Assembly: GCA_038046805.1 (NCBI GenBank)
Contig: JBBSVO010000007.1
Location: 1 to 64,000 of the forward strand
Reading direction: 5' to 3'
DNA: 64,000 nucleotides
Origin: Candidatus Micrarchaeota archaeon
GTDB lineage: Archaea > Micrarchaeota > Micrarchaeia > Anstonellales > Bilamarchaeaceae
Program-made: the position numbers
Shown: positions 18,001-21,000 of the stretch, piece by piece
Layout: each line of letters opens with the position of its first letter
Position numbering within the stretch: the stretch's first letter is position 1

Positions 18001-21000
18001 AGCCCAGTGCTGGCCCCCAAAAGCAATCGAATCTATCCATATGGCTTACAGCTCGCTGCGCAATGCGTTTAAACTAGAAAAACCGTGGTTAATTCTGCGC
18101 GATCAACTCACTTATCAGTTCACATTCACAGTTTTCACGATTTTTTCCCCTGATTTCATCCGTCCTTACGCGTTTGAGTACAGCACCTATTTCGCAATGT
18201 TTGATGAATCCAATTATATGACCAAAGGAGTTCGGTTAGGTCATCCGTATACTCACCCTACAGAACTATTCGCCTCTGCACTGACCGTTTTCAGGTTTTA
18301 CCCACGTGAATTTATAGCACGTTATGAATTGCTTTCTGATGAAATAAGGGGAGTTGTACGCGAAGCTGCATTGTTTATTCTCGATGCACTGGAGGTCGCT
18401 GACAATGGGCGAGGCAAAGTAAGCATCCTGATACCAGAATATGAATTATTGAAGGTCGTACTTGAAGCAGGCCAACCGAAGGCAAGCTATTTTATGCTGG
18501 ATTGTCCATTTTCTTCCCAGTAAGCCGTTAATCGCAAACATAATCAGGGATATTAATTTTGCGGCATAAATCGAGATTGAAAGTAAGTAATACTGTCTGA
18601 ATTTTTCCATGCATTTTATCGTTCATGACCGCATTAGTGATACCAAAAGAAAAATCAATCTTTGACGCGTAAAATCGCTTCAAATATTGAAATTTTTATA
18701 AAAAAATCAATGCTCCGTCCGGGATTCGAACCCGGGTTACTGGAGTTCATCTCTGTCCAGCGTTTCGCGTTCAGCGTTTTGCGCATGACCAGACTGAAAG
18801 TCCAGAGTCCTTGACCGGGATGTCCAACCTCTTTGACTAGTGATGCCTCAGGACTTTTCCGCTGAAGCGCTTTTGTCCTTTGGTTTCATTTGTCAAAAGG
18901 GCTCCTAGACTAACGGAGCAAACAAATATGCTACAATCTCAACGATTCCATGATTTCTCGATGGACATCGCTAATGCTCATTGTAGCATCTACTTTGTGC
19001 CAATTAGGGGTTAAAAACTTATCCTTGGCGAGCTGGAGAAATCGTTCGCGGACTTTTTCAAGATATTCTGCGTTTTCCTCATAGCGGTCTAGCTGCTTTT
19101 GCTTGCGCTTGCGCTCCTGGGATACTGAAGATGGAATGTCAAGCAGAAGAACAGCGTGCGGAACAATGAAATTCATTTTCGCAACAGCCTGCTTTCCATT
19201 TTCGTAATCATACCCGCCAATTGTTTCATACGCGATTGTTGAAAAAACATAGCGGTCCAAAATCACGAATTTTTTTGAATTTAGTGCCGCCCGTACCTGC
19301 TCTTGCTCTTTCATAATGTCTGCAAGAAACAGCTTGAATAAATCCTTTGGTTCAATCTCAATTTTCTTTTCAAGATAATCATTCAATTCCGGGGTGTTGT
19401 GGGTTGGATATTTGAAAACAGCGAGTTCGTTTCCGAATTCCTCGCGAAGGAGATGTATCTGGGTTTCTTTCCCACACCCGTCGATTCCCTCAAAAACAAT
19501 TAACAGCCCCGCCATATCTTCAACCTACCTGCAATTGAACCAAAAGGTTATATAAATATAAAAGTTGTTCCGATTTGTCTGGCGAATTTCTGGTTTGCAT
19601 ACTCCGCGTTTTCTTTGGGGGTGAAATCCGTAAAAATTCCAAAGATTTTTTACATCTTTACAACTCTGGCAGTTGTAAACCCTCAGCCCCTTTCTTTCTA
19701 AAAGAAAGGGGATATAGGATATAAATATAAAAGTTGGCTAGCACAAATATATGGTGCTTATTATGAGGGACATGATATCAATACGAGATTTGGAGAAAAA
19801 GGAAATTGAACTGCTTTTGAAAATGGCTGCTGAAAATGAAGCAGAAATAAAAAAAGGGATTGAACCGAAAAAAACCGGAAAGGTAATGGCAACACTGTTT
19901 TTCGAGGCATCGACTAGGACAAAATTATCATTCCAGACGGCGGCACTTCGTAAGGGGCTTACATATATTGACTTCCTGACTGAAACAAGCTCTGTGAAAA
20001 AAGGGGAAACGTTCATTGACACGATAAAAGTAATTGATGGTTATGCCGACGTAATCGTGGCAAGGCATCCAAAAGAAGGGGCATTGCGGCTGGCGGCTGA
20101 CCTTGCAAATCACCCTGTAATAAACGGGGGAGACGGAGGAAACCAGCACCCGACGCAAACGCTGATTGATTTATACACAATGAAAAAAGAAAAGGGAAAA
20201 ATTGAGGGACTGAACGTAAGCTTGGTTGGAGACCTCAAACATGCAAGAACAATGCACTCCCTTCTTTACGCGCTCGCGATGTTCGGAGCAAACATAACAC
20301 TAATTGCGCCAAAAGGGCTTGAAATGGAAAAAGAACATCTTGAGGAAGTGAAGAAAAAATTCGGGGCAAAAATAATTACAAAAAGTGACCTTGACGCAGT
20401 TGGCGCAGATGTTTTGTATGTTTGCAGGATTCAGGCTGAACGATTCGCAGACCCGCTTGAAGCAAAGCGCGTACAGGAACAATTCAGGATAACCTCTGAG
20501 AATCTAAAGGGCTCTAAACCAGACTTGGTAATTCTGCATCCATTGCCAAAGGTGAACGAGATTGCGCAGGAAGTGGATGAAAGCAGGAATGCGAAATATT
20601 TCTCGCAGGCGCACAATGGCGTGCCGGTGAGGATGGCGGTTATTGATTATGCATTGGGGAAATGAGGTGAGAAGATGACACACAAAACAAGAATAACAAA
20701 AAGTCCGATTCAGCCAACAACACCATCCCACAGCCAGAAGTTAATGCGAAAATGTGCAGCAGCCAAAAACAAAGCAGGTGGCAAACCAGACCTTGCAGAA
20801 TCGCAATCAAGTGATAGAAACGGGGATCGTTCGTCAGAAGGTCAAGACTTTGAAGGAGAGTATACACGGTTTTGGGGTGCTATTGGCCGATCACGTGTTC
20901 ATAGAACGCTGGGCGACAATCCTGGAGTTAAACACCAACCTGGCGGAATACTACGCAAATTGGAAGATACGCCAGAATTTTCTAAGGAACACGGAGGGAA

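Follow-up and report, generated by a model that had tools for sequence, protein, structure and literature searches.

The D-loop intron of a tRNA-Glu(TTC) gene in Candidatus Micrarchaeota archaeon (Bilamarchaeaceae) carries a small repeat whose three strands covary, which has moved among genes, sites and orientations, which prefers structured-RNA genes and which has splice motifs at its tRNA copies. This element of tiny groundwater archaea is probably a mobile repeat that is non-autonomous and most likely acts as single-stranded DNA; its proposed fold has three strands and resembles a purine triplex, and in tRNA loops it serves as an intron. The window, that is, the whole 64,000-nucleotide stretch of DNA analyzed, holds this copy and a second one in a tRNA-Tyr(GTA) gene.

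The origin of archaeal tRNA introns is an open question. For Asgard tRNAs, a 2026 preprint that examined copying, mobile elements and reverse transcription as routes to introns found none of general validity (bioRxiv 10.64898/2026.10.13.758758). The element is a concrete candidate source: one recognizable unit can be traced to rRNAs, to RNase P RNA, to intergenic DNA and to five or more positions in tRNAs, with filled and empty sites in sister species, which makes intron gain testable. Natural signatures of a triplex-like fold under selection are rare, and the three-strand covariation is one of them. For annotation, insertions of the element conceal tRNA genes from standard finders.

Introns of the tRNA-Glu(TTC) gene and their splicing

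The features discussed below are as follows.

18711..18919 (-): tRNA-Glu(TTC) gene with two introns; spliced by coordinates, it is called tRNA-Glu(ttc) by ARAGORN
18820..18904 (-): intron 1, 85 nt, site 15/16 (D-loop); boundaries placed by hand
18746..18794 (-): intron 2, 49 nt, site 37/38; without the element
18846..18904 (-): element core, about 60 nt, from the first base of intron 1
18894..18904 (-): strand 1, the 5' arm, with the T run and a G at its end
18876..18893 (-): loop, 18 nt, variable in sequence and near-constant in length
18864..18877 (-): strand 2, central G-N-C-AAAA-NNN, with two partners
18846..18861 (-): strand 3, 3' A run mirroring strand 2, then N-C-C and a TGAGG end motif
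18820..18838 (-): site-specific tail, an imperfect inverted copy of the 5' junction
about 38086-38376 (+): tRNA-Tyr(GTA) gene with three introns
38101..38183 (+): second copy of the element, in the D-loop intron (15/16) of tRNA-Tyr(GTA); core 38101-38158
38276..38329 (+): short-loop sister repeat, in the T-loop intron of tRNA-Tyr(GTA); intron limits set by eye

ARAGORN overlooks the unspliced tRNA-Glu(TTC) gene, and removal of both introns in silico leaves a clean tRNA-Glu. Intron 1 has a strict bulge-helix-bulge (BHB) motif, with 4/4 pairs in both the central helix and the intron helix. More generally, the tRNA introns that contain the element show the central 4-bp helix between 3-nt bulges expected of archaeal BHB introns: 4/4 pairs were found in 16, 3/4 in two and 2/4 in one of 19 introns, the splice boundaries having been placed manually in knowledge of the motif; an automated ARAGORN search was too noisy. 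A tRNA-splicing endonuclease is encoded (PF01974 match in a 401-aa frame, domain at C8:2251-2520), and its length agrees with that of the broad-specificity epsilon2 enzyme known from the Micrarchaeota phylum (PMC3239211). In ARMAN-2, a member of the same phylum, tRNAs have introns in the same three loops (D, anticodon and T) with strict and relaxed splice motifs, and the accessible part of that account describes no common intron element (PMC3239211). In one RNA run, a depth-2 contig spans the unspliced tRNA-Glu gene without a splice joint; this run may contain DNA.

Strands and covariation of the element core

In the core of about 60 nt, the 5' T-run arm pairs with the central G-N-C-AAAA strand over 11-12 bp, with a C.C mismatch and an 18-19-nt loop; this central strand also has the 3' A-run strand on it, in mirror register. 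The window copy has 11/12 pairs between strands 1 and 2 and one C.C mismatch. Most relatives have a loop of 19 nt, and the final two loop bases pair with the 3' strand.

Covariation was examined in sets that excluded the haloarchaeal and methanogen plasmids (L220-L234) throughout; since the copies are related, its counts are not independent events. In alignment A2 (64 of 87 candidates), pairing reaches 87% in the main helix, where 5/10 pairs show two-sided changes, and 83% over the full structure, versus 30-58% in slid controls. Unaided, RNAalifold chose from the same 64 copies the helix between the 5' UUUUG arm and the internal CAAAA, which supplies 5 of the 6 top covarying pairs. This helix, the strongest of the element, was missing from the genome-wide survey's note, which had proposed a rod; the rod is not the conserved fold. 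Against the main helix speaks that, as RNA, 13 of 14 full D-loop and anticodon-loop introns are predicted to adopt the rod instead. The 5' arm of D-loop copies has two mutually exclusive partners, the main helix or the rod.

The third strand was assessed in a non-redundant set of 211 copies assembled without a main-helix filter. T-A-A is kept at three run positions in 208-211 of the 211 copies and at the fourth in 175, where the T-A pair itself is present in 206/211. Where strand 1 is mismatched, strand 3 pairs (l19-t1 in 205/211, p7-x2 in 166/211), and each flank pairing rule exceeds all 1000 shuffles. The inner GGGC/GCCC helix of the earlier description is therefore real, being represented by l19-t1, and the A runs, described there as its flanks, turn out to be the core of the three-strand arrangement. 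The outer helix, which had been taken as a common feature, is a site-dependent tail: at least 9/10 of its pairs form in 68/213 copies, against 16 in a shuffled control. In the window this tail supplies the outer helix as well as the intron side of the splice motif.

The predicted fold is a hairpin of the T-run arm and the central A run, with a third A-run strand that would turn back onto the central strand. Its strand order is that of a class II purine-motif intrastrand triplex, probably with ordinary base pairs at both flanks. Purine-motif triple helices do not form in RNA, according to PMC4666352. The A-run triplex core is short, at 4-5 triads, and the third-strand bases on either side of it complement the central strand where a triplex would have them identical; the data are therefore also compatible with a two-state switch or with a pseudoknot of RNA that makes A-minor contacts. 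A generic scan for T-run/A-run hairpins was no better than its control (24 vs 21).

In the sister repeat a pyrimidine run is joined by a complementary purine run and a mirror purine run, all three having C or G at the center; it has 7-10 triads and second loops of 8-21 nt. Eight such motifs, one of which resembles chance, were found in this genome versus none in the reversed genome. Where the purine run contains G, the mirror position is G in 8/8 repeats that have a third run (29 hairpins examined, 21 of them without one); the mirror test was otherwise selected on mirror symmetry, this count excepted. Together with the T-A-A counts, the mirror G agrees with class II triplex order with T-A.A and C-G.G triads.

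Sites, spread and movement

An iterated nhmmer profile gave 24 matches at E<0.01 in this genome, corresponding to 22 distinct places since two nested copies each matched as two halves; the best match in a shuffled genome had E=4.1. Ten places are D-loop introns, four anticodon-loop introns and four T-loop introns, and four lie outside tRNA genes. A further short copy without the loop was spotted by eye in tRNA-Thr(GGT) (E=1.0). Thus 19/23 copies are within tRNA genes, though about 92 kb of the genome lie outside ORFs of at least 100 aa. The survey had counted at least 16 tRNA introns, a number that grows to 18 places plus the tRNA-Thr(GGT) copy; its ten D-loop and four anticodon-loop copies were recovered exactly, whereas its two T-loop copies and its single copy outside tRNAs were undercounts, both being four. 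Nested hairpins, which lie between strands 2 and 3, do occur in the three tRNA copies for which they had been reported, and also in one further copy outside tRNA genes.

With our model R1 at E<=1e-5 the element was detected in 65/99 genomes and 19/23 genera of the family, a wider spread through Bilamarchaeaceae than had been claimed. The remaining 34/99 genomes, some of them incomplete, gave no match. Beyond the family, R1 produced 1-3 weaker matches per genome, and those inspected were short-loop forms or doubtful; the phylum tally was 42/151 genomes in all, with the unpublished genome G125 counted in. Sixty family loci were classified by eye as 32 tRNA introns, 10 tRNA 3' trailers, 2 RNase P genes and 16 others. 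Copies are also found in 5S, 16S and 23S rRNA genes, in intergenic DNA and directly after tRNA 3' ends, and a CCCATTAC variant is present in T loops and trailers. No matches were obtained in viral contigs (one pattern searched), and none in plasmids spanned more than 31% of the query; R1 reached at best E=0.03 in five euryarchaeal plasmids, with the two best matches within coding sequence. As had been reported, Rfam contains no related family (14 own loci at E<=10), and Rfam 15 returned only host RNAs and chance matches for 16 loci at E<=0.5. The element is not described in the literature searched, subscription papers being outside the search.

The proposal that the element moved among genes and sites was borne out. 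The closest relative of the D-loop copy in the window tRNA-Glu gene is the anticodon-loop copy of tRNA-Pro(CGG), at 87.5%. The sister species (G098) lacks the copy at C6:218028 of this genome and has a T-loop copy in tRNA-Met, which is intronless there in this genome. Its tRNA-Ala(GGC) holds three copies, and its Glu copy is closer to the anticodon-loop copy of tRNA-Ala(CGC) in this genome (0.88) than to its ortholog (0.80). Several features point to events at the level of DNA. In two genomes RNase P RNA contains an antisense copy, and another antisense copy abuts a tRNA 5' end. Inverted doublets and tandem arrays exist; the arrays are possible assembly artefacts. Flanking direct repeats of 11-35 nt accompany 9/213 copies, five of which are arrays and one a heptamer repeat. 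The earlier view of an RNA element of tRNA introns does not hold for the antisense, trailer, rRNA, RNase P and intergenic copies, which suggest a mobile repeat whose active form is probably DNA.

Against the mobile-repeat reading, no candidate mobilizer tracks the element: a link to IS200/IS605, IS110 or reverse transcriptase (RT) was rejected for want of physical linkage and of co-occurrence. TnpA is found in 17/65 carriers and 8/34 non-carriers, RT in 19/65 and 9/34, and IS110 in 3/65 and 1/34. No copy lies near the 4 IS110 loci or near 30 TnpA loci of the family, and the same run matched only the known tRNA-Gly copy in an RT locus.

Origin of the introns and comparison with known systems

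As a mobile repeat, the element would insert in loops and at the feet of stems, the places at which folded single-stranded DNA is exposed by a gene for a structured RNA. It may survive inside tRNAs because the cell splices its copies out with the broad-specificity endonuclease of the host. The tail could have been gained as an inverted copy of the 5' junction, making the BHB motif complete. Copies outside tRNA genes would be retained if the RNA can bear them or if a direct duplication rebuilds the target, and later exchange among tRNA genes with similar flanks may reshuffle variants. The enzyme, we would guess, is either an HUH (Y1) transposase supplied in trans or the replication-repair machinery of the host, set to work by the fold. 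A bolder reading, which we put forward tentatively as possible rather than probable, is an intron-generating archaeal element: a triplex-forming repeat without a transposase that targets folded genes for tRNA, rRNA and RNase P, is copied by host enzymes and makes its own splice motif from the fold-back junction copy. With its short-loop sisters in the phylum and a possible long-loop haloarchaeal cousin, it could then be a general source of BHB introns.

The main rival is an RNA-borne intron core, an excised intron that a pseudoknot or switch fold would protect, that would be ligated (RtcB-type) into cleaved structured RNAs and that would become fixed in DNA through reverse transcription and recombination. 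Within tRNA genes nearly all copies have sense orientation and start at the 5' splice site, the T run's G lying 9-13 nt inside, for which an RNA route is a simpler explanation. Also in line with such a route are the abundant, stable RNAs encoded by the host genes, exact abutment on RNA 3' ends (RNase P end 293, copy start 294) and the presence of an RT gene in this genome. We nevertheless consider it unlikely. Some copies are antisense, both within RNase P RNA and at tRNA 5' ends, the presence of RT does not follow that of the element, the sole RT of this genome resembles (by eye) that of diversity-generating retroelements, and the mirror G of the sister repeat fits a purine triplex. The excess of G.T over A.C in the outer part of the main helix (50 vs 21) indicates that one strand is favored, which suits an RNA route and also a single DNA strand.

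Whole introns may also spread by gene conversion through similar flanks with no dedicated mobility, pairing being kept by template-switch correction. Same-site copies in similar tRNAs are indeed alike (Gly-CCC/Gly-TCC 0.83, Arg-TCT/Ser-CGA 0.875), three anticodon loops of one relative (G091) hold near-identical copies, Thermoproteales offer a precedent (PMC4090602), and a copy upstream of SRP RNA has decayed in this genome (5/12 pairs) while its G098 ortholog is intact. Yet conversion cannot account for rRNA, RNase P, trailer and intergenic copies or cross D, anticodon and T loops with dissimilar flanks, and template-switch correction would remove the fixed C.C mismatch and cannot create third-strand covariation, which makes this explanation improbable.

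Slightly less probable still is an RNA useful to the host, namely a splicing-gating switch, a processing signal or a self-cleaving theta-like ribozyme. The two exclusive partners of the 5' arm in D-loop copies, core starts at RNA processing sites and a pseudoknot order like that of HDV-like ribozymes would suit it; its absence from 34/99 family genomes (incomplete ones among them), gain and loss between sister species, antisense copies and the lack of any Rfam ribozyme or riboswitch match would not. The HDV-like or theta fold was rejected, as six P2 and three P3 candidate pairs showed no covariation (z <= 1.0) in 151 copies. These were non-redundant 19-nt-loop copies from 280/320 candidates kept by main-helix pairing, which biases their main-helix percentages upward. 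Likenesses to pistol, twister and hammerhead ribozymes, to box C/D RNAs and to group I P4-P5 were dismissed since no Rfam match was found and the invariant catalytic bases were not seen in the alignment. Theta (minimal HDV-like) ribozymes at phage tRNA ends share the pseudoknot order, and some copies of the element directly follow a tRNA 3' end; the element differs in being mostly intronic and in showing no covarying P2/P3 (PMC10879173).

Among known systems, the transposed tRNA introns of Thermoproteales (Fujishima et al. 2010) likewise place related intron sequences in different tRNA genes and sites, by a mechanism presumed to be DNA-level (PMC4090602; bioRxiv 10.64898/2026.10.13.758758). 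There, as far as these accounts go, whole introns are alike, while the element has a three-strand core, a variable tail, non-intron sites, other RNA genes and both orientations. The bacterial intrastrand triplex repeats BoxC, PIT and TM-ECO resemble it in their pyrimidine, purine and mirror purine runs (class II order), occurrence in multiple copies, patchy presence in close relatives and link to rearrangement (PMC4666352). As described there, they have G/C-rich 9-triad stems and 3-6-nt loops, and this description sets them apart from 4-5 A/T triads, an 18-19-nt first loop, paired flanks and structured-RNA genes. The ITxF definition (6-15 triads, 1-6-nt loops) fits neither the main element nor the sister repeat, the latter on account of its second loops.

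Short non-coding hairpin repeats such as the PATEs and SMRs of Haloquadratum (PMC3119063) and bacterial REP/BIME/REPIN (PMC3733652) share with the element a core without terminal inverted repeats, doublets and arrays, and invasion by smaller hairpins. Most copies have no target duplication, and a few have 11-35-nt direct repeats; these long repeats and the main home in tRNA introns distinguish the element from PATEs and REPs. It shows no likeness to the ends of the family's IS200/IS605 elements at 30 TnpA loci. The alignment has no fixed GTAG/CGTC tag as in REP/REPIN with RAYT, and Y1 genes are neither linked nor co-occurring. An inverted tail in only 68/213 copies, with rare duplications of variable length, does not describe a MITE.

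An unannotated repeat of Natrinema versiforme pNVE500 and a Natronococcus plasmid has the same skeleton of T run, loop, GCAAAAA, short spacer and AAAAAGGCC. It differs in its loop of about 40 nt, its intergenic position and the lack of an R1 match, the likeness being one of skeleton. As in the element, its stem contains a pyrimidine mismatch; two near-identical copies lie 1071 bp apart.

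The tRNA-Glu host gene and copies of the element in this genome

The window contains a tRNA-Glu gene with the element, a core of about 60 nt shared by tRNA introns, and a T-loop intron with a related repeat.

Features of the window
18919-18711, minus strand: tRNA-Glu(TTC) gene with two introns; a regular tRNA-Glu once both are removed by coordinates
18904-18820, minus strand: intron 1 of this gene, the flagged stretch, at site 15/16; carries the element
18794-18746, minus strand: intron 2, at site 37/38; unrelated to the element
38276-38329: short-loop sister repeat in a T-loop intron, with mirror purine runs

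An nhmmer profile iterated from intron 1 converged at 24 matches with E<0.01. These correspond to 22 places in the genome: D-loop introns (10), anticodon-loop introns (4), T-loop introns (4) and sites outside tRNA genes (4). The genome-wide survey's note had counted at least 16 such introns and was therefore slightly too low, while its statement that Rfam holds no related family agrees with our searches. The best match in a shuffled-genome control had E=4.1; a short loop-less copy in tRNA-Thr(GGT) had E=1.0. Nineteen of 23 copies lie in tRNA genes, although approximately 92 kb of the genome lies outside open reading frames of at least 100 amino acids.

With splice boundaries placed by hand in 19 element-bearing introns, the central splice helix has 4/4 pairs in 16 and 3/4 in two. 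The tail 3' of the core, which forms the outer helix of the survey, repeats the 5' junction imperfectly in inverted orientation and contributes the intron half of the splice motif. A tRNA endonuclease domain is encoded within a 401-aa frame. One RNA run, which may include DNA, covered the unspliced tRNA-Glu gene at depth 2 with zero splice joints. Spliced D loops of tRNA-Met and tRNA-Ala (C6:32894, C4:76257, C6:71829; C numbers are contigs of this genome) seemingly lack the usual G18-G19. Degenerate repeats of 6-7 bases (GAAACGC/GAAACTC type) fill intron 18746-18794, several other introns and intergenic stretches.

The sister repeat shares its spacer motif with the main element. Further places are at about C2:38835, C3:172770, C3:36660, C3:36780, C6:50085 and C9:12780, and four of seven are in T-loop introns. 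Its pyrimidine run contains a C, its purine run a G, and its third run a G at the mirror position; among 29 hairpins examined, the mirror G occurs in all eight cases having a third run. Eight sister motifs were found in this genome, one probably by chance, versus none in the reversed genome. A third variant (C3:77885-77950; L368 and L369 in the sister species) shares the 5' start and the spacer motif but has G/C-run hairpins, and is located after GTTCAA in a T-loop intron of the sister species and between genes. A loop-less form (T run, 2-5-base loop, A run, spacer, A run; L047, L164, L185 and others) is common in tRNA introns phylum-wide.

Fold of the core

When the copies are read side by side, 20 of 23 can pair their 5' T-run arm to the internal CAAAA strand at no fewer than 9 of 12 positions. 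A single C.C mismatch is usual, and the T and A runs grow in length together. Given 64 copies, drawn from this genome and its relatives, RNAalifold chose this main helix unaided; it is 87% paired, and 5 of its 10 pairs show two-sided changes. A second contact joins the end of the loop to the 3' segment and crosses the main helix; one of its pairs is GC in 39 copies, CG in 18 and AU in 6, adjoining an invariant G-C. Pairing over the whole structure in the 64 copies was 83% compared with 30-58% in slid controls. Among 151 non-redundant copies, a set filtered for the main helix, the top six mutual-information pairs were five main-helix pairs and the crossing pair. This shared fold differs from the one described by the survey, whose outer helix is an add-on rather than a shared part (9/10 pairs in 68 of 213 copies versus 16 in the control), present in 30/43 D-loop and 5/28 T-loop copies. 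RNA fold prediction gave the survey's rod for 13 of 14 full D-loop and anticodon introns and the main helix for all four T-loop introns. The bare core was predicted to form the main helix in 16/19 copies with DNA parameters and 10/19 with RNA parameters.

In 211 copies taken without a main-helix filter, two strands partner the central strand in mirror register. T-A-A occurs at three run positions in 208-211 copies and at a fourth in 175. Flank positions of the central strand that mismatch with the 5' arm pair with the third strand instead (205/211 and 166/211); each of four flank rules exceeded all 1000 shuffles, and the spacing was 18 nt in 114 copies. This strand order, also that of the sister repeat, matches class II among intrastrand purine triplexes; PMC4666352 states that such triplexes are unable to form in RNA. 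Since the core has only 4-5 triads, falls outside the size definition given in that paper, and its flanks show Watson-Crick pairing, the fold may alternatively be a switch or an RNA pseudoknot with A-minor contacts.

Distribution and insertion sites

The covariance model at E<=1e-5 matched 65 of 99 genomes and 19 of 23 genera of the family Bilamarchaeaceae, a wider spread than the survey had reported, with 1 to at least 32 matches per carrier among the candidates scored. Beyond the family it found only 1-3 weaker matches per genome. One exact pattern, which favors one element variant, gave 38 loci in GTDB, 36 of them archaeal and mostly labelled Micrarchaeota; by eye, these 36 lie in tRNA genes (33), 5S rRNA (1, confirmed) and between genes (2). 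Patterns with the same bias also gave 65 metagenome loci, of which the 64 that were parsed lie in tRNA introns (61), 16S rRNA genes (2, one holding four copies) and an intergenic site (1, with a 35-nt direct repeat). Sixty further model matches from 12 genomes were assigned by eye to sense tRNA introns (32), directly after tRNA 3' ends (10), antisense inside RNase P RNA (1), directly after RNase P RNA (1) and others (16). By Rfam coordinates, two genomes have confirmed antisense copies within RNase P RNA; one copy lying antisense at the 5' end of a tRNA and copies in 23S rRNA are confirmed in the same way. The 5S, 16S and 23S insertions are at L100:301-491, L346, L362 and L209.

Copies were also observed as inverted doublets, as tandem arrays (74-91 nt) and next to duplications of tRNA 5' ends; the arrays could be assembly artefacts. 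At L036, L038 and L201, tRNA 3' ends are duplicated (inverted or direct) up to the T loop where an antisense copy starts, which could reflect real rearrangements or assembly artefacts. In two genera (L057, L178) copies lie between the D' and C' boxes of an apparent box C/D guide RNA, recognized by eye, that has no Rfam match.

Evidence of movement and possible mechanisms

The D-loop copy of the window is nearest to the tRNA-Pro(CGG) anticodon-loop copy (87.5%; median of 153 pairs in this genome 62.5%), and the tRNA-Glu copy of the sister species is closer to the tRNA-Ala(CGC) copy of this genome (0.88) than to its own orthologue (0.80). The sister species carries a different variant in the tRNA-Ser(CGA) T loop (0.50) and a T-loop copy in tRNA-Met, where this genome has no intron. 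Other members of the family have an empty Glu 15/16 site. A second copy upstream of rtcA, between imperfect direct repeats, is absent from the sister species. Of the copy upstream of SRP RNA, the sister species has an intact version and this genome a decayed one, as expected for a passenger.

Upstream of rtcA (RNA 3'-phosphate cyclase, named by eye), a hairpin-rich non-coding stretch (C6:217870-218010, L018) hosts one copy, is 96% conserved in the sister species and had zero Rfam matches; it is possibly an undescribed RNA. Within rtcA, an in-frame hairpin insert (C6:218239-218380) lies between two copies of a 32-bp stretch and is absent from the sister species.

The element is real and probably of a kind with small palindromic mobile repeats and transposed tRNA introns; a mobile repeat is the likelier reading, an RNA device the less likely one. 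We lean towards a mobile repeat that is non-autonomous and acts as single-stranded DNA; the mobilizing step would select its three-strand fold. Its entry points would be the loops and stem feet of structured-RNA genes, on either strand. Copies in tRNA loops would persist as protein-spliced introns after the tail completes the splice motif, and copies elsewhere where tolerated or where duplication restores the target. The covariation of the fold, the spread, the targets and the splice motifs are shown by the data, and DNA as the active form, the sequence of events and how the tail arose are inferred. An intron core carried as RNA, an unlikely rival, would account for the sense orientation and the starts at processing sites, yet the antisense copies count against it. 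Gene conversion probably contributes to the spread, but as the sole process it is quite improbable, being unable to reach rRNA or intergenic sites. Least probable is a switch or ribozyme useful to the host, whose HDV-like helices are unsupported by covariation.

Intron copying among tRNA genes is described for Thermoproteales in parts of PMC4090602 and bioRxiv 10.64898/2026.10.13.758758, and a section of PMC3293823 proposes intron gain via an integrating element in Caldiarchaeum. The mobile repeat favored here works like the REP, PATE and SMR repeats as portrayed in portions of PMC3733652 and PMC3119063, including invasion by smaller hairpins, but lacks the membership features given there; PATE palindrome sequences lay outside this comparison and may bear on it. 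The literature searched contained no description of the element, which allows the arrival of archaeal introns to be tested directly. An unannotated haloarchaeal plasmid repeat of about 130 bases (L225, L229, L227), two copies of which flank one gene on pNVE500, resembles the element in skeleton rather than by established homology and has a longer loop.

In the family genomes, carriers and non-carriers of the element did not differ clearly in TnpA (17/65 versus 8/34), RT (19/65 versus 9/34) or IS110 (3/65 versus 1/34), and no copies were found beside these genes, negatives that incomplete assemblies weaken. The only reverse transcriptase of this genome (C11:463-2590, L140) resembles that of diversity-generating retroelements, with a template-repeat-like stretch upstream and a candidate target gene; a long C run interrupts its reading frame. 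It adjoins tRNA-Gly(CCC) and an IS200-type end hairpin at the contig start.
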